IMG/VR virus record: IMGVR_UViG_3300042261_001152
Location: 4,618 to 68,617 of that record
Origin: a virus
Direction: 5' to 3' (one strand)
DNA length: 64,000 nt
Program-made: the position numbers and the translations under genes
The notes under the pieces: generated by a model
The model's database searches: none
Told to the model about the DNA's origin: nothing
Seen by the model: the letters and a program-made list of their open reading frames with translations, nothing else
Shown: piece after piece, positions 13,447 to 27,179 of the stretch
How the letters are laid out: the number at the start of each line of letters is the position of its first letter
Numbering within the stretch: position 1 is the first letter of the stretch

Positions 13447-15957
13447 TTAACTAAATAATCCTGCCAGTGTGGCCTGCGGACTGGTACTCCAGCCCAGACC
13501 TTCTATGATGCCATTCAGAGGTTCAATAAATGCCTTATCCCACATTGTATCATAATCTACATAGTTTGTCAATTGAAATTCTGCAGGAAGTTTACCTATG
13601 AAGGCCACGCAATTTTCTTTGAATGGATTGGGTGTCTTTAAATATAAAAATTTAATCTTATCACCTTCGCCTATGAGTTCATACTTGTTGGTTAATTTTA
13701 ATTTCTGCAAATGATGATTATACAGTAAACTTCCTCGCACATGCATGGGGCAACCTGAGGCATAGATGTTGCTGCTGCTCTGATATTTCTTCATGCCATT
13801 GACTCCGCGTGGGAATGCTATGTCTTCGGGACTAAACTGATCGAATTGTTCTCGGGCTGTATTAATGAATTTTTGCAAAGCAGCTTCATCTGCAGTAATG
13901 GCTACACGAACGGCCTCTTTGAGAGTATTGCGAATAACCTCAGGTGTACTGGATCGAACAATCTCCAGACCCATGACCTTTAATTTAGGCTCAGCATAGC
14001 GAACCTCTTCGTTGTCATAGACATTAAGAGCATATCGCTTCTTGGCTACCCAGATACCACTATCGGCTATGGCCTCTCGCTTAAAGAATACCTTGGGCTC
14101 AAAGGCATTGGTATAGTCTGCTAGATTCATGCAGGCCTGGTTGATTACATCTGTGAGCTTTTCCTTGCAGATTTTATCCAAGATGTCTACAATCTCTGAT
14201 TTGCTCTTATTAGCATAGAACTTCTTGACCAGAGGATCCAAAGTAATATAACAGCTATCAGTATCTGAATAGAAGCTATACACAAAATCTTTAGTACCCA
14301 CTACTCGATTCAAATATTCATTGATAGCTCGGCCAACCTGCTGAATGATCAACTGACCAGTTATGGTTATGCCCTCGGCAATGCGGTCGTCAAAGTATCT
14401 GAAGTAATAGTTGGCCCAGGCTCCAAATAAGCTATTAAGCTGAATTTTTCGAGCCATCTGGAAGTTATAATATCTGCTGATGTCATTTAACAAGCTGGCC
14501 TTATGAGTCTGCTCATATTCCTGCTTGGCAGCTTTTTCTTTATTCTTATACAGGACTCGGTCATTGAATAACTTCTGAACAATCTCTGGGAATAAGCCTT
14601 TCTTATTGCGATTAAAATAATAACCATTGGCTGTCATACAATGATTATCTGTTTTAAGTTCTGACAAATTTTCCTTCTTATCTAATAGAGCACTTACTGT
14701 GGTTGTTAGATGTGTATCTAGTTCAGGTTCAACCAGAGTCTCTGGACTCATGTTATACTGCATGATAATACTTGGATATAGACTTGTAGCATCTAGACTT
14801 ACAACCCAATCATATTTGCCTGGAACAGGATCCTGTACAAAGGCACCTTCGATGCTTCGATCTGGGCGTGTACTATTGCGTGGATGAACCACGATGTTCT
14901 GATCCCAAAGATGATTATACAGCACACAATCCCAGGTGCGAACTGCACTATATACATCGCCAAATAAGCATTTAGCGTCAAAGGCCATGGTGACTGCCAG
15001 CTCTATGAGCTTCATTTTATCTTCTAGCTGAAGCACTCGCTCCGTATCGACAATGTTATATTGTGTAAATCGATTCCAATCATTGGTATAGAACTCTTTG
15101 AAGGTATCAAAAGGATTTTCTAGTTTACCAACTCCTAGCTCAACCTTACAGATATAATCTAGTTTATAGCTCTCCTGAGCGCCATAGGTAAACTTCTTGT
15201 ATAGATCTAAATAGTCTAAATGAGCTACACCAACAATGTCAAAAGTTGTCAGAGTCTTTTCACCATAGGTGATGTCTCGACGTTTAATCTGTCTCCAGGG
15301 GCTAAGCAGTTTGGATGAATCAGGACCTAGTACGCGCTCGGTCCTGTTGATGATATAAGGTAAGTCAAACAGGTTACTGTTCCAGCCAGTTACTACATCT
15401 GGACAATTCTGATTCCAGTAATTTAAGAATTCTTTAAGTAATGTGCTCTCACTGGCGCAGTGATGATATATGGTTTTATCCTCACCTTCAACTGCATGAT
15501 AAGGTTTACGTCCCCAGGTATGCATGGTTCTGGTTGCCAGGTCCTGTATGGTAATAAGCAGAATTTCTTCTTGAGGATCGTCTACATTGGGGAAGCCCTG
15601 CTCACTAGTAGTCTCTATGTCTATGCCCCAGATGGCAATCTGAGCCATGTCAAATTCAATCTGACCAGAATAGTTTTCAGTTATGTACTGATAGGTCCAG
15701 TTGGTATTGCCATGGATCTTCATGTTGCTGACACCCTCGTAGTTCTTTATGAACTCTCGGGCATCATTTAGATCACCAAATTCCATGACATCCAAGGGCT
15801 CGCCATACATGTTATGATACGTGGCTTCGCCTGGCTTCTTTTTAGGTACAAATAGCTTGGGTTTGAAGTTTTCTTTGGTTTGGAATCGCTGACCGTTATG
15901 AACGCCTCGAACTAAGGCATTATTTCCATAGATTGTTATGTTTGTATAGAATTTCAT
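13447..15957 (-). CDS. 43: DNA polymerase gp43 (family B)
   Basis: DIET exonuclease motif, SLDATSLYPSII, KIQLNSLFG, YSDTDS, KKRY. Confidence 0.97.
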   Translation of the reverse strand: MKFYTNITIYGNNALVRGVHNGQRFQTKENFKPKLFVPKKKPGEATYHNMYGEPLDVMEFGDLNDAREFIKNYEGVSNMKIHGNTNWTYQYITENYSGQIEFDMAQIAIWGIDIETTSEQGFPNVDDPQEEILLITIQDLATRTMHTWGRKPYHAVEGEDKTIYHHCASESTLLKEFLNYWNQNCPDVVTGWNSNLFDLPYIINRTERVLGPDSSKLLSPWRQIKRRDITYGEKTLTTFDIVGVAHLDYLDLYKKFTYGAQESYKLDYICKVELGVGKLENPFDTFKEFYTNDWNRFTQYNIVDTERVLQLEDKMKLIELAVTMAFDAKCLFGDVYSAVRTWDCVLYNHLWDQNIVVHPRNSTRPDRSIEGAFVQDPVPGKYDWVVSLDATSLYPSIIMQYNMSPETLVEPELDTHLTTTVSALLDKKENLSELKTDNHCMTANGYYFNRNKKGLFPEIVQKLFNDRVLYKNKEKAAKQEYEQTHKASLLNDISRYYNFQMARKIQLNSLFGAWANYYFRYFDDRIAEGITITGQLIIQQVGRAINEYLNRVVGTKDFVYSFYSDTDSCYITLDPLVKKFYANKSKSEIVDILDKICKEKLTDVINQACMNLADYTNAFEPKVFFKREAIADSGIWVAKKRYALNVYDNEEVRYAEPKLKVMGLEIVRSSTPEVIRNTLKEAVRVAITADEAALQKFINTAREQFDQFSPEDIAFPRGVNGMKKYQSSSNIYASGCPMHVRGSLLYNHHLQKLKLTNKYELIGEGDKIKFLYLKTPNPFKENCVAFIGKLPAEFQLTNYVDYDTMWDKAFIEPLNGIIEGLGWSTSPQATLAGLFS

Positions 15958-15968
15958 ATCTTAGTTAT

Positions 15969-15976
15969 TATAAATA
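15969..15976 (+). promoter_or_regulatory. T4-type late promoter driving the plus-strand csg operon
   Basis: Exact TATAAATA 30 nt upstream of ATG 16006. Confidence 0.75.
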
Positions 15977-16005
15977 CTATGGTACATTCTGTCAATAGGT
16001 CTATC

Positions 16006-16284
16006 ATGGATATTTTTAAACTCATAGCCGAAGTAGGATTTCCCATAGCAGCTGCCTGTGCTGGTGGGTATTTTGTGTTTCTTACACTTAAATTTATCTT
16101 AGCTGGCGTCATGGGTTCTATCAAAGGTCTTACAGGTATTATAACGGCCCTGGACAACAGAGTCAAGACCATGAACCATGACATTATCAGAATCGATACT
16201 TTAGTTAGTAATGCTCTAGGCGTCAAACCCGATGTGGATCGTATCGCACGTGCGGATGGTAAAAATGACGCTCGCAAAGATTAA
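16006..16284 (+). CDS. Small single-TM coiled-coil protein (YvrJ/holin-like), paralog A
   Basis: LIAEVGFPIAAA..GGYFVF TM then ALDNRVKTMNHDIIR; similar to 17470-17745. Confidence 0.6.
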   Translation: MDIFKLIAEVGFPIAAACAGGYFVFLTLKFILAGVMGSIKGLTGIITALDNRVKTMNHDIIRIDTLVSNALGVKPDVDRIARADGKNDARKD

Positions 16285-16573
16285 CTTTATTATATTAGGT
16301 TTCATAAGCTGTGTCAATCTTTTTGCCGCAGAAAACGTTAAAAAACTACACTATAATTTTAATCCAAACGTAACCATTTGGATAACCAATCAACCCTGTA
16401 CAGATGTTAAATTTCGTCGTACATATCCTTGGGCCGCTGAAGCGGTTCGAAGTGATGGTGAAGTTTTACAGGGCTGTTTCAATGGTGAACAAAATACAGT
16501 AACCATACAATGGTTGGGTGGTGATACCAGTAAATTTCCCGCTGATTATTTTTTAGGGAACAAGGATAATTAA
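16265..16573 (+). CDS. Small exported protein
   Basis: Signal-peptide-like N-terminus; two Cys in the mature part. Confidence 0.55.
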   Translation: MTLAKINFIILGFISCVNLFAAENVKKLHYNFNPNVTIWITNQPCTDVKFRRTYPWAAEAVRSDGEVLQGCFNGEQNTVTIQWLGGDTSKFPADYFLGNKDN

Positions 16574-17356
16574 ATGACTCCTATCAAACAGACAAAATTT
16601 ACCGAACAGGCCTATCTGTTCGCTCGCCTGGCTAAACTGGCATATTCCAACCCAGACCAGGCCGAAGAGCCATTTGCTCAGCTGGGCTTTAATGCTCACT
16701 TTTTTGATGTCAATGGCAGTCAGGCCTATTTGCTGACCAATGCTCATGATCTCATAGTTGTATGTCGTGGCACACAGCCCACGGAATTCAAGGACATAGC
16801 AGCCGATCTGGATGCCATCATGGTGCCTAGCTCAACTGGCATAGGTCATGTACATAGAGGATTTAAAACATCAGTGGATAACATCTGGCCTGGCCTGGTG
16901 GACAAACTTAGGGAATACGGTAAGACTCGCACCGTCTGGTGTACAGGTCATAGTCTGGGAGCAGCCATGGCAACATTATTGGCTTATAGACTGCAAAGAT
17001 CCGAGGATTGTCCTAACCCACAGGCTTTGTTTACCTTTGGTAGTCCACGCGTAGGTAATAAAAAATACGTGACTCAGATTGAAAGCATTGGACTATTGCA
17101 TTTTAGATTTGTCAACAACGCTGACATAGTTGCCCGTGTACCTGTATGGCCCTATCGTCATTTTGGTGGCATGTACTACATGAACCACTTTGGTAATCTC
17201 AGAGCACCAACTGCCTGGCAGGTAACCAAGGACGTCTGGAGAGGTTTCCTGGTAGGACTAAAACGCAGGGAAATTAACTTCTTTAGCAATCATAGCATTG
17301 ATCGCTATGAAAACAACCTATTAAAATGGAATCTGGGCGTAGAAAATCCCCAGTAA
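16574..17356 (+). CDS. Class 3 lipase (alpha/beta hydrolase)
   Basis: RGT oxyanion motif, VHRGF, TGHSLGAAMA, FGSPRVG, NNADIV, NHS. Confidence 0.9.
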   Translation: MTPIKQTKFTEQAYLFARLAKLAYSNPDQAEEPFAQLGFNAHFFDVNGSQAYLLTNAHDLIVVCRGTQPTEFKDIAADLDAIMVPSSTGIGHVHRGFKTSVDNIWPGLVDKLREYGKTRTVWCTGHSLGAAMATLLAYRLQRSEDCPNPQALFTFGSPRVGNKKYVTQIESIGLLHFRFVNNADIVARVPVWPYRHFGGMYYMNHFGNLRAPTAWQVTKDVWRGFLVGLKRREINFFSNHSIDRYENNLLKWNLGVENPQ

Positions 17357-17357
17357 T

Positions 17358-17492
17358 ATGTCATTTAAAGAATACTTTTTAGCCGTTGTGGGCACCATAC
17401 TCATAGCTCTTTATTGCAGCTGGGTTGATGAACATGACGTAACTTTAACAACACCCGAGATCGCAGTTCATGGACATAGTAGCACTAATTAA
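17358..17492 (+). CDS. Small membrane peptide (44 aa, not in ORF track)
   Basis: MSFKEYFLAVVGTILIALYC; fills the operon gap. Confidence 0.45.
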   Translation: MSFKEYFLAVVGTILIALYCSWVDEHDVTLTTPEIAVHGHSSTN

Positions 17493-17745
17493 CAAGTATG
17501 GATTTCCCATAGTAGCCGCAGTTGGTGGTGGCTACATGGTTTATTATGTCTGGGTTTGGGCCACCAAAGAAGTAAAGCCAGTTCTTAGTGAAGCAAATAC
17601 AGTATTAATTGCTTTGATTGATCGTGTTAGAATGTTAGACAATGATTTAATTCGTTTAAACCAAAAGATTAACATAGTAACCATGCTCAAGGATCTGGAA
17701 AATGAAAAAGTTCGTAAACCTACTAATCGCCCTGACCGGGATTAG
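17470..17745 (+). CDS. Small single-TM coiled-coil protein (YvrJ/holin-like), paralog B
   Basis: LINKYGFPIVAA.GGGYMVY, ALIDRVRMLDNDLIR. Confidence 0.6.
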   Translation: MDIVALINKYGFPIVAAVGGGYMVYYVWVWATKEVKPVLSEANTVLIALIDRVRMLDNDLIRLNQKINIVTMLKDLENEKVRKPTNRPDRD

Positions 17746-18148
17746 TACGGCTCTAGCAGCACCGCTTCCTGATTATACATTTAAGAGTCCTGCCTTCAAT
17801 GGCAATGGATATAGTAGTCACGTACTGACCATTGAAAACCAGGAACATGCTCGCAAAGAAAGCATCAAAAAAGAAATACAGGCCGCACTGGACAAAGCCA
17901 AAAATGATGCCAACAACACCAACATAGCCAAATTTCTAAACAATCTAGAGAGTCGTATCTATGCTCAGATATCACAGAATGTAGCCACGGCCATGTTTGC
18001 CGAGGGCGGTAGTAATTCTGGTACATTGAACTTCGAAGGCAACATCATATACTGGACCAAGAGTTCAACAGAGATTACACTTAATGTAACCGATTACCTG
18101 GGCAGTACAACCTCTATTAACATACCACTGGGAAGTTTTCAATTCTAA
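17702..18148 (+). CDS. csgF: Curli assembly protein CsgF-like
   Basis: Signal peptide; YTFKSPAFNG.G, FLNNLESRIYAQIS, C-terminal TTSINIP; adjacent to csgG. Confidence 0.8.
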   Translation: MKKFVNLLIALTGISTALAAPLPDYTFKSPAFNGNGYSSHVLTIENQEHARKESIKKEIQAALDKAKNDANNTNIAKFLNNLESRIYAQISQNVATAMFAEGGSNSGTLNFEGNIIYWTKSSTEITLNVTDYLGSTTSINIPLGSFQF

Positions 18149-18149
18149 A

Positions 18150-18950
18150 ATGCGTACACTAATTTTATTGGTTATGCTACTGGGGTTAACTGGCTGTGCA
18201 ACTACTCGCATGGTCACAGGACCTGATAAACCTCAAGAAGTAAAAAGTATCCTTCAGAAAGAATTTGATACTTTACCACCACCAACCGGTAAGCCTATAA
18301 CAGTGGCTGTTTATACTTTTGCAGACAAAACCGGTCAGCGACGACCAGCTGCTAACTATGCTAATCTTAGTTCAGCAGTCACACAGGGTGCGGATGCATT
18401 TTTAATCAAGGCCCTGCAAGATGTAGGTAAGGGTCGCTGGTTTGAAGTAGTTGAACGCGTAGGCATAGATAGCCTGACCAAAGAGCGTCAATTAATACGT
18501 CAGATGCGCGAAGCCTATGAAGGCGACAAAGCTAAACAGCTCGGTCCTATGGCATTTGCAGGCATTATACTTGAAGGTGGTATCACAGGTTATGATAGCA
18601 GTATCAAGAGTGGTGGCAGTGCTTATAGAATGTTGGGCATAGGACCACAGACTCAGTACAGCGAAGACATAGTCACTGTAAGTTTACGAGCAGTAAGTGT
18701 TAATTCTGGCAAGGTGCTGGCTGCAGTAAACATACAGAAAACCATTTATAGCGCCAGTGATTCATTGGCCATATTAAAGTTTGTGAAAGATGGAACTCAG
18801 GCATTTGAGCTGGAGTCTGGACTAACCATCAATGAGCCAGGCACATTGGCAGTTAAAGCTGCCGTTGAGTCAGCAGTCGTGGAATTAATCAAAGAGGGTA
18901 GCAAGAAAGGTATCTGGGAATTCGCCTATGAACCCTTGCAACCACAATAA
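18150..18950 (+). CDS. csgG: Curli secretion channel lipoprotein CsgG-like
   Basis: Lipobox LTGC; VAVY.F.DKTGQ, SSAVTQGA, WFEVVER.G..L.KERQLIR, EGGI.GYD. Confidence 0.92.
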   Translation: MRTLILLVMLLGLTGCATTRMVTGPDKPQEVKSILQKEFDTLPPPTGKPITVAVYTFADKTGQRRPAANYANLSSAVTQGADAFLIKALQDVGKGRWFEVVERVGIDSLTKERQLIRQMREAYEGDKAKQLGPMAFAGIILEGGITGYDSSIKSGGSAYRMLGIGPQTQYSEDIVTVSLRAVSVNSGKVLAAVNIQKTIYSASDSLAILKFVKDGTQAFELESGLTINEPGTLAVKAAVESAVVELIKEGSKKGIWEFAYEPLQPQ

Positions 18951-18959
18951 GGAGTAAAA

Positions 18960-19745
18960 ATGATAAAATCATTTAAACTTTTTGTTATGGTTTTATTATT
19001 AAGCATCAGTGCATATGCTGCAGATAACAGCATCTACGTTGATCAAAGCGGTGATGACAGTACCATTGACATAACACAAACTGGTGCCGGCAACGTTGTA
19101 CGAGGCATACAGGGCGTGGGCACTGGTAATACAACACCTGCCAAGATCTATGGTAACAGCAATGGCATTGATATCAGACAAATAGGTAGTACCAATACCT
19201 TAAATCTGGGCATCAATACAACTGTTTCAACTGGTAGAGCCTATGGTATAGATCTAACCTATTATGTTACAGGTAATAGTGGTACTGCTACCATCAATAG
19301 TAACAACGCTGGTACTGGAACCTCAGGCAGTAATTTCATAGATGTTCGTCAGACCGGCAACAGTGCTAACCTAAACCTAAACATACTGGGTAGTAAAAAT
19401 GACTTTACAGCTGTTACTTCAGGTGGTGCCAGCAATAGCATAACTGCTACCATCAATGCCGATGAAACTGTGACCAATCTCAGTCTCACTGGTGGTGCCA
19501 ACAATAGCTTTACTGGTACATTGAGCAGCAACAAAGGTCACGTTGATATTACCACAGTAGGTGCCAGCAACAGCATCAACCTAACACAAACCGGTACTGC
19601 TGGAACCAATGGTCATGCATTTACCTATAGTGCCACAGGTTCTAACAATTCCATGACAGCTACACAATCTGGAACTATTGATACAACTGTCAATGTAACC
19701 AGTACTGGTAGTGGCAATACATGGAACATAACTACTGGAAATTAA
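18960..19745 (+). CDS. Curlin-repeat (CsgA/CsgB-like) secreted protein
   Basis: Signal peptide; repeated N-x-I-x-I/V-x-Q-x-G units; N/G/T/S-rich. Confidence 0.7.
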   Translation: MIKSFKLFVMVLLLSISAYAADNSIYVDQSGDDSTIDITQTGAGNVVRGIQGVGTGNTTPAKIYGNSNGIDIRQIGSTNTLNLGINTTVSTGRAYGIDLTYYVTGNSGTATINSNNAGTGTSGSNFIDVRQTGNSANLNLNILGSKNDFTAVTSGGASNSITATINADETVTNLSLTGGANNSFTGTLSSNKGHVDITTVGASNSINLTQTGTAGTNGHAFTYSATGSNNSMTATQSGTIDTTVNVTSTGSGNTWNITTGN

Positions 19746-20836
19746 TCTTATTACTGCTATGGTCGCAAATAGCCTTTGCGGCCGTGGGCAGTATTACTGA
19801 ACTAAGCAACGCACCGCCCAGCATAACACGCAAAGGCAGCAATGTAGCCGGGGCCAAGGGAACAGGTGTAGAAATGTCTGACGTAGTTAAAACTACTGCA
19901 GGCAAGGCCGGCATAACCTTTGCAGATGATACCCGAGTTCAGGTCAATGAAAACAGTAAGTTAGTCATAGATGATTTTGTCTATGACCCCAACAGCAAAA
20001 AAGGTGGCAAACTTGCCATGAATGTTGCTCTGGGTACGGTTCGCTATGCCTCTGGAGCAGTCGCTCACAACAATCCCGATAGTGTAAAAATTAATACTCC
20101 CACGGCAACCATAGCAGTACGCGGAACAGACTTTACAGCTACAGTAGACGAACTGGGTCGCAGCACCATAATCTTATTGCCCAGCTGTCCCCATGATTAC
20201 AAAGATGTCATATTAGATTGCAAGACCGGTAAGATCGAAGTCATAACTGACGAGGGCAAGGTCATCATGGATAAACCTTTTCAGGCTACCAGAGTGGATA
20301 GCAGAGAAACCAAACCATTTAAACCTGTTATATTAAATCTCGATGCTGATCAGATCAGCAATATATTAATACTAAGTCCGCCCAAAGAACTCAGGGACAG
20401 TGACGAGGACAAACACAAAAAGAAGTTTGAAGCCAAGGGTGCATTAGATGTAGACTTTCTGGCCGAGAATAAACTCATTAATGTTCTGGAAAAAGAAAAT
20501 GCTGAAACCTATAAGAATAAACTGGATCGTAATTTCCTGGACAATGACTTTTTAGCCAACATACTGGACATCATAAATGCTCAATTACAGGCACAGTTAG
20601 ATCTGCTGGGTAAAACTAAAACTGGATTGTTGCCCGATTACATACCAACCTCGGGTGTCATAGTCGAAGTAGACGATCTACAGGTTACACTGTGTCGTGA
20701 AGGTGGGGGTGACATACAGTGCATAACAACTCCAAAAAATCAAAACTCAACCATAACACAGATACAGGGACCTGTAGAAATTAAAAATAGGATCAACAAT
20801 GGTGGCAACACGATTATTAACGCTACTCAGAATTAG
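19721..20836 (+). CDS. FecR-domain periplasmic protein
   Basis: Signal peptide; ITFADDTRV.V.ENSKL.IDDFVYDP, INTPTATIAVRGTDF. Confidence 0.85.
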   Translation: MEHNYWKLILLLLWSQIAFAAVGSITELSNAPPSITRKGSNVAGAKGTGVEMSDVVKTTAGKAGITFADDTRVQVNENSKLVIDDFVYDPNSKKGGKLAMNVALGTVRYASGAVAHNNPDSVKINTPTATIAVRGTDFTATVDELGRSTIILLPSCPHDYKDVILDCKTGKIEVITDEGKVIMDKPFQATRVDSRETKPFKPVILNLDADQISNILILSPPKELRDSDEDKHKKKFEAKGALDVDFLAENKLINVLEKENAETYKNKLDRNFLDNDFLANILDIINAQLQAQLDLLGKTKTGLLPDYIPTSGVIVEVDDLQVTLCREGGGDIQCITTPKNQNSTITQIQGPVEIKNRINNGGNTIINATQN

Positions 20837-22319
20837 TTTATTGTTGCTTTGTTTAAATGCTAGGGCTGATACTCTAGGCACGGGTTTTGAAAGCAACAGC
20901 ATAGACGGTTGGACTGTATCTGGAACCCTGGCTGCTACTAAGAATACCTGGAGTCCCAATGGTGCTGGTGTGGCATTAACAACTGGTGTTACCAATTATA
21001 GCCCCGGTGGTGGTAAAACCTGGACCATAGCTCCCTATGGCAGCTACATGGCATCTATTCAACCAGGATCAAACTCTGTAACTTTTGATAGTGCCATAGG
21101 TAGTCTAGGACTGACAACCACTGAGGGAACAGCCATAAAAAACTTTTTAACCTATCAGGCCAACAATGGCGGTGGTGGTAATCCTAATCCTACTAATGCT
21201 GCCTGGATGAAAAAATCATTTGCTCTTACGGCTGGAACTACCTATACCATGGCCTGGCAATATCTCAGCACTGACTATACACCCTGGAATGATGGTAGCA
21301 TGGTGTCTCTGGTCAATGACAGCAATGCCAACATTACACCAACACTCAATGGATCCAATCAACGCTATGGCCTATTGGGCTTTACCAATCCGGGAACTGG
21401 TAACTATGCCACAGGTAGTTATGGCGCCACAGGCTGGCAAAGCATACAGTTTACTGTGCCGCAGTCTGGTAATTATACTTTAGGATTTACAAGCTTTAAT
21501 TTAGGTGACCAATCTTTAAGCCCTATTTTATTTGTAGATGTGATTATTGGTTCAACAAGTCTTAACGGTGCAACATTTACACCCATACAGCCCAATGCAG
21601 GTTCAACTGCACCACCGCCACCGGCTCCGGGTCCTACCTATAGCTCTGGCATAACTGGTGCTCAGACTACATCTAAAAATGCCAAGACTGCTGTACGTCA
21701 GGCTCAACATGGCAATGAAATCTATGTCGAACAGGCCGGCAGTAACAATACATTTACTCTGCGTCAGGGTGGTTATAGCACGGGCAAGGCTCGCATAGAA
21801 TTATATTCAACTGGTGATAGTAATACCTTAAATTTAAATCAGGCTAAAAACACCGATGGGTCTTCACCTGGAGCTGATAGCAACAATCACTATTTGTATC
21901 TGTATCTAAATGGTAATAGCAACAACATTACCACCAAGCAGGTAGATGGAACTACTGCAGGCGTTGGTCATTTCATGGAAAGCACCATATCTGGTAATAG
22001 CAACAATGTCACTAACATACAGCAAGGGTCAGGTGCCAAGATACTATTTCAGAGCATTTCTGGCAATAACAATACAGTATCAACCACACAGAGTGATACA
22101 GGACAGGATTATTTGGATTTAAAATTGACCGGATCTGGTCATAATGTAACTACTGTGCAGTCGGGAGCTGGCAATCATGCTGCCACCATAGACCTAACCA
22201 ACTCAGGTGGAAGCAGCACCCTAAACATGACGCAGAGCGGCAGTACCGCTCAGACGTATTCCATACAGCAGAGCTGCACAACGGCAGCTGGCTGCTCTAC
22301 TACCATAACCCAACCCTAG
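20799..22319 (+). CDS. Secreted protein: jelly-roll-like N-domain, Pro linker, curlin repeats
   Basis: GFE...GW start of domain, PPPPAPGP linker, NEIYVEQAG/NNVTNIQQG/HNVTTVQSG repeats, C-terminal CTTAAGC. Confidence 0.7.
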   Translation: MVATRLLTLLRISLLLLCLNARADTLGTGFESNSIDGWTVSGTLAATKNTWSPNGAGVALTTGVTNYSPGGGKTWTIAPYGSYMASIQPGSNSVTFDSAIGSLGLTTTEGTAIKNFLTYQANNGGGGNPNPTNAAWMKKSFALTAGTTYTMAWQYLSTDYTPWNDGSMVSLVNDSNANITPTLNGSNQRYGLLGFTNPGTGNYATGSYGATGWQSIQFTVPQSGNYTLGFTSFNLGDQSLSPILFVDVIIGSTSLNGATFTPIQPNAGSTAPPPPAPGPTYSSGITGAQTTSKNAKTAVRQAQHGNEIYVEQAGSNNTFTLRQGGYSTGKARIELYSTGDSNTLNLNQAKNTDGSSPGADSNNHYLYLYLNGNSNNITTKQVDGTTAGVGHFMESTISGNSNNVTNIQQGSGAKILFQSISGNNNTVSTTQSDTGQDYLDLKLTGSGHNVTTVQSGAGNHAATIDLTNSGGSSTLNMTQSGSTAQTYSIQQSCTTAAGCSTTITQP

Positions 22320-22388
22320 TTACTTGTATTCCTGATCGCCTCGATCAGATGGTTGTGGTGTTAAAGGCTGTTTGTTTTCGTTAGGCAT
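22320..22388 (-). CDS. Possible 22-aa micro-ORF
   Basis: AAGGAG RBS then MPNENKQPLTPQPSDRGDQEYK directly after the cyclase. Confidence 0.3.
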   Translation of the reverse strand: MPNENKQPLTPQPSDRGDQEYK

Positions 22389-22397
22389 AATGGCTCC

Positions 22398-24422
22398 TTA
22401 TTTGCTTGTTGCACGATATACACCATCCCAGTTAGCTGGTAGGCCTTCATCAAAACGTTCCATCATGTTCTTGTAGTAATCCTTAATGGTTACTTCATCA
22501 TTATTTATCATTTTCTCAGCCCAAGTACGAGCCTTGGTCCAGTTACCACGATAATATTCTTTTAGATATTCATTATGCATATAGGCTATGGTATGACCAA
22601 CAGTAAATATCTTGACGCCTTCGGTTTTACCTTTGACTGCTATGGTATCTAATTCTACAACTGAGATTTCATCCTTGACCAGCTCTGCGGTTCTGGCGCC
22701 CAGTACTACTTTGACACCATAGGGTTTGCTCTGACCTTCGAGTCTTGATGCCAAGTTAACCCCATCGCCGAGGCAAGTATAGTCGAAACGCTGTGTAGAG
22801 CCCATATTACCCACAACAACGTCAGCAGTGTTGATGCCCAGCCCCATGCCGAACGCCGGGATACCTTCCTGAGCAATTTCCGCATTAAAGCCTTCCAGAT
22901 CATTTAACATCTCCAGGGCGCATTGAACTGCGTGTAGTGCATGTGCTTTATCATCCAAGGGTGCATTCCAGAATGCCATCTGAGCATCACCTATGTACTT
23001 GTCCAATGTGCCCTCGTATTCTAGTATGCGTTTGGTCATGGCCGTCATGTAGCGGTTCATGATTTTTGTCAGTCCCTGTACGTCTTTGCCATAGTGTTCA
23101 GAGATTGTGGTGAATCCACGAACATCAGTAAACATGATACTCAACTCTCGGGTCTCGCCACCCAGCTTTAATAACTCTGGATTCTTTTGCAGCTCTTCTA
23201 CCATCTTGGGGCTTAGGTAGGTGCCAAACTGTTTCTTTATCTGAAGCTTGGCATTGAGCTCAGTAAGGAATTTAACTGTATAACTGTGGATATAAACGAG
23301 GGCAAGAGCAACAATAGGAAAACTAACATCGATAAGCCAAAGCTCTTTTGCATAACTAAACTGAGAATATGCATAGATACCATACAAAATACCAATGAAA
23401 GGAATAAAGCCATAGGTCCACCTTGTTAAGAAAATAGCAATAATGCCCAATAATAATACACCCAGTATCTCGGCACCATCGGCCCAGTCAGGGCGCTGAA
23501 TATTTATATTGTTGCTTAATGTGCCTATGACAGCGGCCTGCAGGTCCTGAGGATATACAGCACCCAGAGCCGTTGGTACTGGATTGCTTAGTCCAGCTGC
23601 GGTTAGTCCCACAATGACTATGCCTTTGTTAAAATCCTTGGGCAACTTTACTGCACTGACTGCAGTTGATCGTTGTGAGAGATCAACCCATACACGACCC
23701 AGACTATCGGTGTTGATGACATTGAATGACGGAACACGCATTTTCTCTACGCCATTGGCATTTAACTTGACCTGAAAGGTGCTGTCGCCAGCTAATAGTC
23801 TAAGTACTTCTAGGCTCACACTGGGATAAAGATTGCCATTTGAACCAACAAATAGCGGAAGACGACGATTGACACCATCAATCTCTGGCAGTGTATTGGC
23901 TATGCCTACACCAGCAGCGGCATTTTCTAATTCGGGAATGTTGGCAATCAGACCAGGATAGTTAATGATGCGATCTAGATTTTCTGAACCAATGACAGCT
24001 GAACCTGGACGACGTGCCTGATTCTTGTTGGTCTGGGCTGGCATGTTGGTCAGCACCACGGGCTTGTCTTTTAGAGTTGAAGCCAGAGCAGCATCGCCAC
24101 CCAGCCTATCCTTTTCGGGCATCATGACGTTCCAGACTACCAGCCCGGCATTGTGAGCATATAACTCACCTATGAGGTTGGCATACTGATCGCGTTTAAA
24201 TGGCCATTGACCATAGCGATCTAAAGTAGCCTCATCAATGTTTACCGTATAGATGTTGTTCTGAGTAGCAGCCTTATTGGTAATTAATGTGTCAAAGTAT
24301 CTGAGCCTAACAGACTCCACGAATGCAGGATCAGTGACTCTGATGCCTATGATCAGACTCAGGGTTAGTAAAGCCAACCAAGGGCTTAGTAGTATTTTAA
24401 TGAGTGTCTTTTTCAATTGCAT
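22398..24422 (-). CDS. CHASE2-domain class III adenylate cyclase
   Basis: N-terminal TM, CHASE2 (IDEATL..YGQWPF.R), 3 TMs, FTDVRGFT, DKYIGDA, DYTCLGDGVNLASRLE. Confidence 0.92.
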   Translation of the reverse strand: MQLKKTLIKILLSPWLALLTLSLIIGIRVTDPAFVESVRLRYFDTLITNKAATQNNIYTVNIDEATLDRYGQWPFKRDQYANLIGELYAHNAGLVVWNVMMPEKDRLGGDAALASTLKDKPVVLTNMPAQTNKNQARRPGSAVIGSENLDRIINYPGLIANIPELENAAAGVGIANTLPEIDGVNRRLPLFVGSNGNLYPSVSLEVLRLLAGDSTFQVKLNANGVEKMRVPSFNVINTDSLGRVWVDLSQRSTAVSAVKLPKDFNKGIVIVGLTAAGLSNPVPTALGAVYPQDLQAAVIGTLSNNINIQRPDWADGAEILGVLLLGIIAIFLTRWTYGFIPFIGILYGIYAYSQFSYAKELWLIDVSFPIVALALVYIHSYTVKFLTELNAKLQIKKQFGTYLSPKMVEELQKNPELLKLGGETRELSIMFTDVRGFTTISEHYGKDVQGLTKIMNRYMTAMTKRILEYEGTLDKYIGDAQMAFWNAPLDDKAHALHAVQCALEMLNDLEGFNAEIAQEGIPAFGMGLGINTADVVVGNMGSTQRFDYTCLGDGVNLASRLEGQSKPYGVKVVLGARTAELVKDEISVVELDTIAVKGKTEGVKIFTVGHTIAYMHNEYLKEYYRGNWTKARTWAEKMINNDEVTIKDYYKNMMERFDEGLPANWDGVYRATSK

Positions 24423-24567
24423 GTCCGCGTGTGGCTCCGTTTTGTTGATCGGGTTGAGGTATGATCATGGGTGCAGGACTAGGTGGTGGCAGTGGTGCGC
24501 AAGCGGTTAGAACCACCAGCGATAGATACCCCACAAGTCGATAAAACTGAATATGATGTTGTGCCAT
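24397..24567 (-). CDS. Small proline-rich lipoprotein (56 aa, not in ORF track)
   Basis: MAQHHIQFYRLVGYLSLVVLTAC-APLPPPSPAPM...; lipobox LTAC; weak RBS. Confidence 0.5.
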   Translation of the reverse strand: MAQHHIQFYRLVGYLSLVVLTACAPLPPPSPAPMIIPQPDQQNGATRGHAIEKDTH

Positions 24568-24728
24568 AGTAGTGCTGGATCCCTTCTAAATATATATAAG
24601 CCCATTAAATGGCCTGCAAAGAAAGTAATAAAGCCTATTTTACTATAGGCAAAATTGGAACTTAGTAATAGAGCACTACCTAAAAAGGTAATGCTCATGA
24701 TCCATTTATACTGCTGATCTCTAGTCAA
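24507..24728 (-). CDS. Small multi-TM membrane protein
   Basis: Three hydrophobic segments; N.IF..IDLWGIYRW C-terminus. Confidence 0.6.
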   Translation of the reverse strand: MTRDQQYKWIMSITFLGSALLLSSNFAYSKIGFITFFAGHLMGLYIFRRDPALLWHNIIFSFIDLWGIYRWWF

Positions 24729-25083
24729 TGAGACTGCTCCATTTACGTAATTTTTCTCGTTTGGCCATCTGGGCCTGTGTAATGTGTACGTTGTCTATGA
24801 TATTCATCTGTTGCAGTAGTTCTATCATGCAGCGTAGATCACCAATTTCTTTTTCTAACTGCTCACGATTAGTAGTCCCATCACCTGCGGTAACATAGGG
24901 TAGGTCTATGCCAAAGCGTATGATCTTACTGATCTGCTGTATAACCTCAGCACATTCTTCAGCAGTTATGATCAGAGCTTCTAGTGTTTTGGTGCCCAAG
25001 AGAGGACTCGAACCTCCATGACTTGCGTCGCCAGTACCTGAAACTGGTGCGTCTACCAATTTCGCCACCTGGGCCTGTTTCAT
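24721..25083 (-). CDS. MazG-like NTP pyrophosphohydrolase (N-terminus reads through tRNA-Leu)
   Basis: EECAEVIQ...NREQLEKEIGDL; TAATG coupling at 25081-25085. Confidence 0.7.
   Translation of the reverse strand: MKQAQVAKLVDAPVSGTGDASHGGSSPLLGTKTLEALIITAEECAEVIQQISKIIRFGIDLPYVTAGDGTTNREQLEKEIGDLRCMIELLQQMNIIDNVHITQAQMAKREKLRKWSSLID
24990..25074 (-). tRNA. tRNA-Leu(CAG)
   Basis: GCCCAGG acceptor, CCAGT-TTCAGGT-ACTGG anticodon arm, long variable arm, GGTTCGAGTCC, encoded CCA. Confidence 0.93.
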
Positions 25084-25265
25084 TACGCCTTGCCTGCAGC
25101 TGTTTTGGCTTCTTGAATTTCTTTGCGACGAGCGCGAACCAATTTACCAATCTCACCTAGTGCTTTACGAGCACGAGCTGCAGACGCCTTAACGCCTTTG
25201 GTTTCAAACTTTTCATTCTCAGCTGTATAGATAGCTACCTGTTCTAAAATCTGTTCATGTGTCAT
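25083..25265 (-). CDS. Histone H1-like (Hc1-family) small basic protein
   Basis: KF..KGVKASAARARKAL.EI.KL....RKEI. Confidence 0.65.
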   Translation of the reverse strand: MTHEQILEQVAIYTAENEKFETKGVKASAARARKALGEIGKLVRARRKEIQEAKTAAGKA

Positions 25266-25274
25266 GTCTTTCTC

Positions 25275-25502
25275 CTAAAGATTATTTTCTTGATTAAATT
25301 GTGCAAGTTTGTCTAATGCCTGATTTTGTTTGCGTCGTAATTCACGCTCAATCTTACATTTGTCTTTCTTTACCTGCGTCTTTTCTAACAGAGCAGATAA
25401 TTGCTTTGTATTCAAACCTCTGAGGCGAGGTTTACCACTTTTGTACAACTGTGGATTGTTGTGTCTTTTACTTGGATGAACTCGGTTACTTGGCGTTGCC
25501 AT
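25275..25502 (-). CDS. Hypothetical basic protein
   Basis: ORF within the operon. Confidence 0.55.
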   Translation of the reverse strand: MATPSNRVHPSKRHNNPQLYKSGKPRLRGLNTKQLSALLEKTQVKKDKCKIERELRRKQNQALDKLAQFNQENNL

Positions 25503-25755
25503 GGTCTAGTCCTTCTGGTGTTAGTTTACCTTCGATGATTTCATTTAGAGCTGCATTAATAGGCTTATAACCTGTTTTGATTAATCGACCCTGCTGCTTT
25601 TCCTGAAAGTTTTTCTTATGATGGATTTCACGAGCTCGAGCCGCTGCCACCAGAATCATTTTATACTGTTCCTGGCCAAACATACGAACTGCTCGTTGCA
25701 CATCAATGCGGGGATTTTCTTTTGGTTCCCCTAACATTACGTGATTGTAGCTCAT
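25486..25755 (-). CDS. rpoZ: RNA polymerase omega subunit homolog
   Basis: RIDVQRAV...Y.MILVAAARAREI...KPINAALNEIIEGKL matches the omega pattern. Confidence 0.75.
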   Translation of the reverse strand: MSYNHVMLGEPKENPRIDVQRAVRMFGQEQYKMILVAAARAREIHHKKNFQEKQQGRLIKTGYKPINAALNEIIEGKLTPEGLDHGNAK

Positions 25756-26318
25756 TAAATCTTACCTACTAGATCTAAAGTAGGAGCCAGAGTAGCTGCA
25801 CCTTCTTTCCATTTAGCCGGACAAACCTGACCTGGATTATTGGCTACATAGATGGCTGCTTGAATTTTACGAACTAATTCAGCTGCATCACGACCAATAC
25901 CTTCGGCAGTAGTCTCAACAATCTGTGCTCGACCTTCGGGATTGAATACAATGGTTAAACGATGTGGTAGGCCAGTATCCTGGTCAACATTGTTTAAATA
26001 TGAACTTAGAATCCTGTTTGGATCGCCAATGAGTGCATATTCAACTTTACCCACAGTGTCTGAAGTATCATGCCAGGCTTTATGAACAAAATGTGTATCA
26101 TGACTTACGCCATAGACATTTACACCCATTTCCTGTAACTTGGCATAGTGATCCTGTAGGTCACCAAGCTCGGTAGGACAAACAAAGGTAAAATCTGCTG
26201 GATAAAAGAATAAAACTGACCATTTATTTAAAAGGTCGTCTGTGGTGATTTCTTTAAACTGACCTGCCTGATAGGCATTGAGTTTGAATTGAGGTATGGC
26301 TGCATTGATATAACTCAT
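25755..26318 (-). CDS. ahpC: Peroxiredoxin AhpC
   Basis: FFYPADFTFVCPTE, DTHFVHKAWH, VCPAKW. Confidence 0.95.
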   Translation of the reverse strand: MSYINAAIPQFKLNAYQAGQFKEITTDDLLNKWSVLFFYPADFTFVCPTELGDLQDHYAKLQEMGVNVYGVSHDTHFVHKAWHDTSDTVGKVEYALIGDPNRILSSYLNNVDQDTGLPHRLTIVFNPEGRAQIVETTAEGIGRDAAELVRKIQAAIYVANNPGQVCPAKWKEGAATLAPTLDLVGKI

Positions 26319-26343
26319 CATTTCTCCTTCATGTTAAAATACT

Positions 26344-26372
26344 ATTATATAATACTACTGTGTTGCTGTCAA
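26344..26372 (-). promoter_or_regulatory. Sigma70-type promoter for the ahpC-rpoZ-hc1-mazG run
   Basis: TTGACA-17-TATAAT. Confidence 0.7.
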
Positions 26373-26551
26373 TCCTTTAGCTTTTTATAAAGTTCATCAT
26401 TGTCTTTGATGCTATATTCAAGGGCTGATTCAATTTTTGGTTCTAGCTTTACACTCCAGTCAATCTGATCGAAGTTTTTATCAAAGCTATCTGTACCAGT
26501 TTTTGATTTAATCAAATCATTGGTAATGGGGTTACGAGCAGTTTTACTCAT
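26369..26551 (-). CDS. Hypothetical protein
   Basis: ARNPITNDLIKSK...F..NFD.IDW. Confidence 0.5.
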   Translation of the reverse strand: MSKTARNPITNDLIKSKTGTDSFDKNFDQIDWSVKLEPKIESALEYSIKDNDELYKKLKD

Positions 26552-26562
26552 GTTGTAACTTT

Positions 26563-26817
26563 CTAAAAGAGTTTAGGGGGTAGTTTGTTCTTTTGCTGTT
26601 CGCGTTGCCAGCGTTTGACTGCTGCTGCATGTTTTTGCTTGCGAACCGTAGTGGGTTTGGTATAAGTTTCTCGATCTCGCAGATCACGTAATAAACCTGA
26701 GTCTTCGATCTTTTTACGAAATTTACGAAACGCTGATTCGAAAGAAGCATCACCTACCTGGACCGTACTACCGTCTAGGTTATTTCTGCTGGGTTTTCTG
26801 ATATTTTTTTGTGCCAT
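26563..26817 (-). CDS. rpsU: Ribosomal protein bS21
   Basis: FESAFRKFRKKIEDSGLL.DLR.RE.Y.KPT..RK.K.AAAVKR. Confidence 0.9.
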   Translation of the reverse strand: MAQKNIRKPSRNNLDGSTVQVGDASFESAFRKFRKKIEDSGLLRDLRDRETYTKPTTVRKQKHAAAVKRWQREQQKNKLPPKLF

Positions 26818-26845: not shown

Positions 26846-26917
26846 TGGAACGACTCCCTGGTTACGATCCAGGCCCTCTGCTTTATCGATGCAGCGCTCA
26901 CCATGAGCCAGAGCCGC
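26846..26917 (-). ncRNA. Atypical tRNA-like RNA (anticodon position GAT)
   Basis: Full cloverleaf with CCA, but C33, A31-A39 mismatch, 5-nt D-loop and T-loop ATCGTAA. Confidence 0.65.
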
Positions 26918-26926
26918 TTTGTTCCT

Positions 26927-27002
26927 TGGCCTGCCCAGAGCGATTCGAACGCCCGACCCTGGAGGTAGAAGCTCCATGCTCTATCCACTGAGCTATGAGC
27001 AG
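26927..27002 (-). tRNA. tRNA-Arg(TCT)
   Basis: TGGAG-CTTCTAC-CTCCA anticodon arm; TTCGAAT T-loop; GCCA end. Confidence 0.9.
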
Positions 27003-27005
27003 GTA

Positions 27006-27082
27006 TGGTGGGCCCGCCTGGGCTCGAACCAGGGACCAATGGATTATGAGTCCACTGCTCTGACCAACTGAGCTACAGGCCC
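27006..27082 (-). tRNA. tRNA-Ile2/Met (CAT)
   Basis: GGGCCTG acceptor, GTGGA-CTCATAA-TCCAT arm; resembles lysidine-type ileX; ACCA end. Confidence 0.88.
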
Positions 27083-27087
27083 TTAAT

Positions 27088-27179
27088 TGGCGGAAGTTAT
27101 AGGATTCGAACCTATGCTCCGGATCGCTCCAGAGGACGGCTTAGCAAGCCGCTGCCTTCGACCACTCGGCCAAACTTCC
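27088..27179 (-). tRNA. tRNA-Ser(GCT)
   Basis: GGAAGTT acceptor, CGGC-TTGCTAA-GCCG arm, long variable arm, GCCA end. Confidence 0.92.

Follow-up and report, generated by a model that had tools for sequence, protein, structure and literature searches.

Why would a bacteriophage carry a curli-type secretion channel, a FecR-domain protein and a CHASE2 adenylate cyclase side by side? We examined this question at positions 15969-24422 of a 64-kb stretch of virus DNA (the window), which belongs to a 68.6-kb IMG/VR virus record (IMGVR_UViG_3300042261_001152) estimated by CheckV to be 38% complete. A preliminary description had noted here a promoter motif, a plus-strand gene block and then a converging minus-strand cyclase gene, and this observation was confirmed. 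We find that the locus is a freshwater, inverted-cyclase representative of the curli-like (type VIII) viral secretion module known from marine SAR11 and OM43 phages. The module has seven conserved parts (phrog_18771, CsgF, CsgG, a curlin, FecR, a head-plus-curlin protein and the CHASE2 cyclase), and computation shows that they are tightly linked. Pfam and PHROGs matches agree with the identities noted earlier for csgF, csgG, the curlin, FecR and a lipase (Table 1).

We scored the linkage in both directions. A CsgG profile found at least 562 relatives in IMG/VR, of which the best 80 (63-91% identity) were examined; a cyclase profile found at least 553, and again the best 80 were examined. Weaker relatives, including those of marine podoviruses, lie outside both sets. 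Among the CsgG loci with at least 8 kb of downstream sequence, FecR was present in 39/39 and the cyclase in 37/39. In one of the two exceptions (locus L048), the cyclase lies 14 kb downstream on the same contig, behind inserted dehydrogenase and outer-membrane genes; in the other (L012), an autotransporter and a phosphate porin stand where the cyclase is expected. Conversely, where a cyclase locus had 8 kb or more of upstream sequence, FecR lay within 10 kb in 32 of 38 cases, and CsgG was present in 31 and phrog_18771 in all 38. Of the six loci scored without FecR, one (L212) lies in the L048 contig, which has FecR, and three have CsgG and FecR 16-20 kb upstream on the same contig. The linkage persists from 91% down to ∼46% CsgG identity, whichever gene is used for the search. 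The preliminary description had made co-occurrence of the csg/FecR genes with the CHASE2 cyclase its own refutation test, and in phage genomes they do co-occur. A phage genome of 329 kb, complete and ending in direct terminal repeats (G008, behind L215; csgG at 106181-106957), carries CsgG and FecR 16-20 kb from the cyclase; thus, the module is also found in jumbo phages.

The inverted cyclase of the window is rare: it lies on the opposite strand in 2/80 CsgG loci (L045, L081), and a single contig assigned to a metagenome-assembled genome (MAG; L087) shows the same. The junction where the genes for the second curlin and the cyclase converge is spanned by contigs of three runs from three studies, two of them with zero differences (possibly the source sample) and the third with 90 differences over 1820 bases. 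We conclude that the two genes do converge and that their layout is no assembly artefact.

The phage collection gave a known counterpart. By tblastn, HTVC008M and four Melnitz records are the only ones with both CsgG and a full-length cyclase; the 8.5-kb stretch as a whole found no megablast match in this collection. Melnitz (MZ577097) and HTVC008M (NC_020484) are annotated csgF-csgG-curlin-FecR-curlin-cyclase, with the cyclase co-directional, and the window is 46-48% identical to them in CsgG and 38% in the cyclase. The main text of PMC9599517 describes a viral type VIII secretion region of CsgF, CsgG and CsgA/B, then FecR, with a second CsgA/B and an adenylate cyclase frequently following. 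The paper reports the region from pelagiphage podo- and myoviruses, as widespread in ocean viromes (at all 65 Global Ocean Viromes, GOV2.0, stations examined) and as expressed in metatranscriptomes, and it treats FecR as an iron regulator. The gene chain is therefore not new, and the preliminary view that the full chain was not on record for a phage is mistaken: that paper describes the chain, and the Melnitz record annotates all six genes. The main texts of PMC7029224 and PMC9004378 discuss CsgF/CsgG only, with no cyclase, FecR or CHASE2, and the word CHASE2 does not occur in the main text of any of the three papers. Literature searches linking CHASE2 with curli brought up one unrelated paper, and for a phage that joins CsgG, adenylate cyclase and FecR they gave PMC9599517 alone.

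Table 1. Features of the locus and its left neighbour, in window coordinates.
Feature	Position	Strand	Evidence or remark
gp43 DNA polymerase	13447-15957	minus	T4-type replication gene
TATAAATA, T4-type late-promoter motif	15969-15976	+	head of the plus-strand block
phrog_18771 copy 1, small membrane and coiled-coil protein	16006..16284	+	phrog_18771 1.5e-33
Small exported protein	16232..16573	+	signal-peptide-like N-terminus; no family match
Class 3 lipase/esterase	16574..17356	+	Lipase_3 5.8e-27; phrog_21992
Hydrophobic peptide, 44 amino acids (aa)	17358..17492	+	relatives in L004-L006, 48-60% identity
phrog_18771 copy 2, 91 aa	17470..17745	+	directly upstream of csgF
CsgF with signal peptide	17702..18148	+	Pfam 6.5e-15; phrog_35372 1.2e-56
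CsgG outer-membrane lipoprotein channel (predicted)	18150..18950	+	Pfam CsgG 6.8e-46; lipobox LTGC
Curlin-repeat secreted protein, conserved subunit	18960..19745	+	Curlin_rpt 2.2e-4
Secreted FecR-domain protein, 371 aa	19721..20836	+	Pfam FecR 1.5e-10; signal peptide
Second curlin protein, 506 aa	20799..22319	+	variable N-terminal head, Pro-rich linker, conserved C-terminal array
CHASE2 class III adenylate cyclase, 674 aa	22398..24422	minus	CHASE2 4.8e-36; Guanylate_cyc 7.3e-19

We wondered whether FecR and CHASE2 are also paired outside phages. A FecR profile run against a genome collection gave 79 loci. Seven (L084-L090) lie in MAGs of unrelated phyla; six of these contain all or some of the phage module, and L084 is a 1.6-kb fragment with FecR alone. 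The 72 others match the FecR domain only. A CHASE2 gene lies within 8 kb in 32 of these 72 bacterial loci, together with a cyclase domain in 17, and CsgG/CsgF was found in none of the 72. Pfam placed FecR beside a CHASE2-cyclase or CHASE2-PP2C gene in four of the loci, and in other phyla FecR or TPR proteins directly precede CHASE2 cyclases. Published reports describe a LysM-FecR gene beside a CHASE2 kinase in Burkholderiales (PMC5192318) and, in Campylobacterota, a CHASE2 cyclase whose gene cluster also encodes an outer-membrane FecR protein, a phosphodiesterase and a TPR protein (PMC9239204). Bacterial CHASE2 sensors thus do adjoin FecR-domain genes, as the preliminary description had stated. 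Four bacterial CsgG loci had no FecR and no CHASE2 nearby. The union of the secretion genes with FecR/CHASE2 thus appears to be viral; clear bacterial precedents exist for each half. A SAR11 bacterium, Pelagibacter ubique HIMB4, has such a pair of its own (L094:4586-10604: a CHASE2-PP2C phosphatase, a 465-aa unknown protein and an 874-aa FecR-domain protein), and phage FecR or CHASE2 could cross-talk with this host operon.

We asked what kind of FecR the phage encodes. In the structure model, a FecR fold (residues 23-200; predicted local distance difference test, pLDDT, ∼90) is followed by a disordered or helical linker and a small six-stranded C-terminal beta domain. The model matches the periplasmic domains of the anti-sigma regulators 4m0h, 4m0n and 6ovk, the last being PupR bound to its outer-membrane transducer (probability 1.0; template modelling score 0.47-0.51 on the target). 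The phage protein has neither a cytoplasmic anti-sigma domain nor a membrane anchor, its beta strands starting at residue 23 directly after the signal peptide, and the incomplete 68.6-kb record gave no match to an ECF sigma factor (PF04542) or an STN transducer domain (PF07660). With these elements missing from the protein or the record, the phage FecR is not a regulator of the FecIRA type. The FecR and cyclase genes lie 1.6 kb apart. Complex prediction of CHASE2 (residues 28-316) with FecR (residues 21-215) scored 0.00 in both runs, with no controls folded alongside, and this result speaks neither for nor against binding. A curlin repeat in the C-terminal beta domain was considered and rejected: profile-profile comparison between the FecR and curlin families aligned signal peptides only (probability 23%), and a hidden Markov model built from the C-terminus of FecR matched curlins at E 0.35 at best, versus 0.30 for shuffled versions.

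The cyclase has one transmembrane segment, a periplasmic CHASE2 domain (Pfam residues 21-328), three further transmembrane segments, the catalytic domain and a conserved C-terminal tail. The preliminary description had called it intact, and in alignments D433, D479, K475, T549, N556 and R560 are all kept. We take D433/D479 to be the metal-binding aspartates, K475/T549 the base-specifying residues and N556/R560 the transition-state pair; a Lys/Thr pair is typical of adenylate cyclases. Matches to adenylate cyclases of solved structure, the CyaB catalytic domain of P. aeruginosa among them, score 106-127 bits. The catalytic set is thus intact, and the enzyme is predicted to make cyclic AMP (cAMP). 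The catalytic domain is also recognised by Pycsar cyclase (PycC) profiles, as expected because the fold is shared; the best of them (1.6e-24) scores 84.8 bits, less than the solved adenylate cyclases. No Pycsar-type effector is adjacent to the cyclase, and the 68.6-kb record has no PF00027 domain. A further copy of TATAAATA lies within the cyclase gene on its coding strand (23501-23508, minus), ∼920 bases past the gene start.

CsgG aligns with solved E. coli CsgG (3x2r) at 157 bits over residues 1-258, full length and with the lipobox included. At the constriction loop the two sequences differ, with GQFKPYPASNF in the E. coli protein and GQRRPAANYANL in the phage protein; we presume these residues to line the pore. 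The CsgF match in Pfam spans residues 7-142 of 148, and phmmer against solved structures gave no meaningful match for CsgF. From these matches, CsgG and CsgF are predicted to form an outer-membrane secretion channel. CsgE had been reported as not seen, and in agreement the 68.6-kb record (38% complete) gave zero CsgE matches.

The likely cargo of the channel is a pair of secreted Gln/Asn/Gly-rich repeat proteins, both with signal peptides. The conserved subunit reaches 21.5 bits with Curlin_rpt against a cut-off of 20.7. The 506-aa protein stays under the cut-off (E 0.017), and in its family 5/25 members match at E ≤1e-3, the best relatives at 1.3e-8. Throughout this family, a C-terminal strand-turn-strand repeat array ending in a Cys pair is conserved and the N-terminal head is hypervariable: PA14 in 6/25 members, F5/8 type C in 1/25. 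The second curlin thus carries swappable lectin-like heads, and a conserved anchor with exchangeable heads is as expected of a displayed adhesin. An AlphaFold2 model of the C-terminal 200 residues of the window's protein is a regular strand array (pLDDT 80-93). The jelly roll that the preliminary description gave to this protein is a suggestion only, because the head folds poorly (pLDDT mostly 30-70) and matches carbohydrate-binding-module and cleaved-adhesin folds weakly; an atlas search of the head gave CBM_4_9 and Cleaved_Adhesin at 0.75-0.78, leads only. Both curlins are probably exported through CsgG and may form a fibre. In E. coli, the CsgA secretion signal is a Gly-rich N-terminal segment. 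On reading their sequences, the phage curlins have no recognisable segment of this kind, unlike E. coli CsgA.

The seventh part is phrog_18771, which is obligate in the module. It sits at one module edge, either just downstream of the cyclase on the opposite strand (31 loci) or before csgF on the same strand (28 loci), and the 18 loci where it is missing all have less than 8 kb of upstream sequence. It also precedes csgF in Melnitz and HTVC008M. The family comprises at least 7997 clusters and has neither a Pfam domain nor an informative name. The window holds two paralogous genes (PHROGs 1.5e-33 and 9.9e-30); the reading frame of copy 1 is open from 15979, with the likely start at the ATG at 16006. 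The preliminary description had labelled both products holin-like. They are indeed small membrane proteins and paralogs, but the holin label comes from a short and weak match (phrog_4898, E 0.0019 over 24 residues). A match to YvrJ was not significant (Pfam E 0.075-0.17), and its atlas score of 0.88 is a lead only. Pfam detected no kinase domain in the two phrog_18771 proteins of the block.

How is the block transcribed? We surveyed open reading frames of at least 90 aa, excluding those nested within longer minus-strand frames. Plus-strand frames were confined to 15979-22319 and the remainder of the window is minus strand, so that the block is indeed the only plus-strand block, as first described. 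TATAAATA occurs 9 times in the window versus 4.63 expected, a count reached by 4/100 shuffles. The copy at 15969-15976 is the sole one on the plus strand, and 5/8 minus-strand copies lie in short gaps just upstream of genes. The motif that the preliminary description read as an exact late promoter is therefore present at the start of the block, and from its position we infer that it acts as one. Three sigma-70-type promoters on the minus strand point toward the DNA polymerase gene: two with 12/12 matches to TTGACA-17-TATAAT (15967-15995, 16289-16317) and one with 11/12 (16138-16166). The nearest (15967-15995) overlaps the plus-strand TATAAATA, and the others are antisense within phrog_18771 copy 1; leftward transcripts made early could thus cover the beginning of the late block in antisense. 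The 78 bases that part the converging genes showed no clean intrinsic terminator.

Taken together, these results suggest the following picture, which we consider about an even bet (probability roughly 0.5): the locus is the freshwater copy of a viral T8SS (type VIII secretion system) module that joins a channel and a lectin-headed curlin fibre to a FecR/CHASE2 sensor pair making cAMP. Late in infection, CsgG and CsgF would form an outer-membrane channel, through which the conserved curlin and the second curlin would be exported to build a beta-solenoid fibre that displays an exchangeable lectin-like head at the surface of the infected cell. The FecR-domain protein would stay periplasmic and partner the CHASE2 domain of the cyclase, as in bacterial FecR/CHASE2 pairs, so that an envelope or secretion-state cue would be turned into cAMP, with phrog_18771 as a candidate target. 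A signal peptide or lipobox on CsgF, CsgG, both curlins and FecR provides the envelope signals for such a layout, and the idea of signalling across the envelope is plausible but unproven.

Several observations weigh against this picture. The 84-base gap upstream of the cyclase has no late-promoter motif; being inverted as well, the cyclase may therefore be expressed at another time than the csg block. Cargo of up to ∼20 kb parts the cyclase from the csg genes in some phages, and two fragmentary contigs (7% and 9% complete) show a cyclase with no csg genes seen. In bacteria, only 32 of the 72 FecR loci gave a CHASE2 neighbour, a count limited by the sensitivity of tblastn with a phage query. 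In podoviruses, the cyclase is less frequent than FecR according to the main text of PMC9599517, and FecR may therefore have a cyclase-independent role. The Pfam curlin assignment of the window's proteins is marginal, and Buchholz et al. (PMC9004378) report no clumping of Melnitz-infected cells. The output is a further difficulty. A cyclic nucleotide-binding domain (PF00027) is absent from this 38%-complete record, from complete Melnitz and HTVC008M, from two further viral contigs and from the Pelagibacter HIMB4 genome, which has one CHASE2 gene and no class III cyclase. The proposed cAMP output is therefore left with no known receiver in these genomes; at least in SAR11, judged from one Pelagibacter genome, phage-made cAMP would seem to meet no canonical one.

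Could the signal be contact itself? The lectin-headed fibre might report contact with glycans, neighbouring cells or particles, or the secretion state, via FecR to the CHASE2 cyclase, cAMP and a non-canonical phage-encoded receiver, for which phrog_18771 would be the obvious candidate, the output being the timing of lysis or of fibre display. We regard this extended version as unlikely. That superinfecting phage or touching cells are sensed, and that lysis timing depends on such cues, as the preliminary description suggested, is likewise tentative, as is the direction of signal flow. If true, it would work in hosts, such as SAR11, that have no class III cyclase or cyclic nucleotide-binding protein of their own. 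Similarly doubtful is a lysis-timing or pinholin/secretin-like device made of the CsgG/CsgF pore and phrog_18771, in which curlins, FecR and cyclase tune the breach of the envelope, as proposed in print for Melnitz (in the main text of PMC9004378). The block does open at a late-promoter motif with a small membrane protein, it contains a cytoplasmic lipase, phrog_18771 is present at every one of the 38 cyclase loci with enough upstream sequence (best 80 of at least 553), and in L087 an endolysin lies ∼1.8 kb from the cyclase. The phrog_18771 match to a holin, however, is short and weak, that to YvrJ is not significant, Pfam and PHROGs identified no endolysin or spanin in the block, and an outer-membrane channel does not depolarise the inner membrane. 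Such a device would also leave two conserved secreted repeat proteins, one of them lectin-headed, unexplained.

The uptake of nutrients or cofactors through the channel, with FecR as an iron-responsive regulator, has been put forward in the main texts of PMC7029224 and PMC9599517. It would profit from a pore that could stay open, the CsgE gate not having been found in the record, and the name FecR derives from iron-citrate signalling. Yet the phage FecR is a cleavable signal peptide directly before the FecR fold, with no anti-sigma domain, anchor, ECF sigma or STN partner in the record; its bacterial relatives adjoin CHASE2 sensors, not iron transporters; and CsgF and two secreted curlins would be superfluous. 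We judge this to be the least probable of the explanations. Finally, the cyclase might act independently of csg/FecR, as a general host-takeover or counter-defence enzyme that merely shares a hypervariable island. Its inversion and separate transcription in the window, the gap of up to 20 kb that some phages have between it and the csg genes and the Pycsar matches to its catalytic domain would fit, as would a junction that is a hot spot for cargo (autotransporter, porin, dehydrogenases, outer-membrane barrel proteins). The linkage over the whole range of CsgG identity and in both search directions argues against it, however, as do the higher scores of solved adenylate cyclases, the missing adjacent Pycsar-type effector and a periplasmic CHASE2 sensor that shares the module with a FecR-domain protein, its usual neighbour in bacteria. 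An independent cyclase is thus improbable, though not more so than the lysis device. We therefore return to the channel, fibre and FecR/CHASE2 sensor pair as the favoured reading.

This reading would matter for several reasons. The module is very common in aquatic phages, with the numbers of CsgG and cyclase relatives in IMG/VR given above, and infected cells gain a secretion system that their hosts lack. CHASE2 domains have long lacked a known ligand, a question for which a compact phage system with fixed partners could be a tractable model. Taking FecR as a CHASE2 partner rather than an iron regulator gives a testable three-compartment model, as does taking the second curlin as the carrier of lectin heads, and it is a concrete puzzle that neither phage nor SAR11 host shows a canonical receiver for cAMP. 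To the published module, this analysis adds the identification of the CHASE2 sensor, the recurrence of FecR/CHASE2 adjacency in bacteria, a FecR that is not an anti-sigma factor, the swappable lectin-like heads, phrog_18771 as a seventh part and the absence of a canonical cAMP receptor among the genomes searched.

The surroundings identify the carrier. The phage is a freshwater T4-like phage: the left flank encodes a T4-type gp41-like helicase, UvsX and gp43 DNA polymerase, the closest cultured relatives of the polymerase are T4-like cyanophages (48-49% identity), and the sequence (∼42% G+C) is also present in lake and freshwater metagenome runs. The right flank holds tRNAs and accessory genes. 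Directly upstream of the cyclase, on the same strand, lies a gene for a very hydrophobic 73-aa protein with no family match (24507-24728, minus). It is followed by a host-like accessory run (24721-26817, minus) of a MazG-like protein, a histone-like Hc1, an RNA polymerase omega (Rpb6) homolog, an AhpC peroxiredoxin and ribosomal protein S21; the MazG-like frame overlaps a tRNA-Leu (24990-25074), and a tRNA cluster lies beyond the run at 26846-27179. Contig depth from other runs peaks at 22722-23072, in the catalytic core of the cyclase, and at 24828-25178, around the tRNA-Leu; these peaks are probably conserved sequence recruited from other organisms.

Within the block, the exported protein has relatives in L011, L021 and L024 (51-62% identity). 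The lipase, which has a GHSLG motif and no signal peptide, is an accessory gene present in the closest relatives only (L004, L005, L007, L008, L011). A cargo site lies between the second curlin and the cyclase, where L012 (15267-18979) carries an autotransporter beta-domain protein and a phosphate-selective porin, and L048 (14527-20189) a PQQ dehydrogenase, a molybdopterin oxidoreductase and an outer-membrane beta-barrel protein. Contigs with the phage module also sit in MAGs (L084-L090, L163 and L165, of which L084 and L165 are short fragments) labelled Actinobacteria, Flavobacteriaceae, Polynucleobacter, Luteolibacter, Rhodobacteraceae, Pirellulales, Bacteroidetes and Cellvibrio. In L087, the one checked, phage genes lie on both sides (ligase, exonuclease, endolysin, Hsp20), so these look like mis-binned phage contigs.

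Compared with the pelagiphage module, the window shares the order of one or two small genes before csgF, then csgF, csgG, curlin, FecR, second curlin and adenylate cyclase, the absence of CsgE and the position between replication and structural genes of a T4-like phage. It differs in its inverted cyclase, in the duplication of phrog_18771 and in the inserted lipase, exported protein and 44-aa peptide. The gene before csgF is given as a histidine kinase in the main text of PMC9599517; here a gene that may be a different one encodes a 91-aa protein with no kinase domain. The texts on the module describe marine phages, and that of PMC7029224 states that freshwater fonsimyophages have no such operon; because the window comes from a freshwater phage, the module is not confined to marine pelagiphages. 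With the CsgBAC/CsgDEFG system of E. coli, the window shares the CsgG lipoprotein, the CsgF family and secreted repeat proteins rich in Gln, Asn and Gly; the record gave no CsgE match, and FecR, the CHASE2 cyclase and phrog_18771 are added.

The sensor half resembles other systems. As in FecR/PupR cell-surface signalling, the periplasmic fold of FecR is alike, although the cytoplasmic anti-sigma domain is absent from the phage protein. The bacterial FecR/CHASE2 pairs likewise combine an exported FecR-domain protein with an adjacent membrane protein that has a periplasmic CHASE2 domain and a cytoplasmic output; their companions, however, are TPR proteins, phosphodiesterases, response regulators or long FecR proteins, whereas the phage FecR is short (371 aa) and has a C-terminal beta domain of its own. 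The CHASE2 adenylate cyclases CyaD1, CyaD2 and CyaK of S. meliloti are a precedent for signalling from outside the cell to cAMP: according to the text of PMC13001267, an outside protein signal is sensed via the outer-membrane beta-barrel NsrA and cAMP rises. There the partner is NsrA rather than CsgG, and S. meliloti has the Crp-like receiver Clr, whereas no such PF00027 receiver was found in the phage record.

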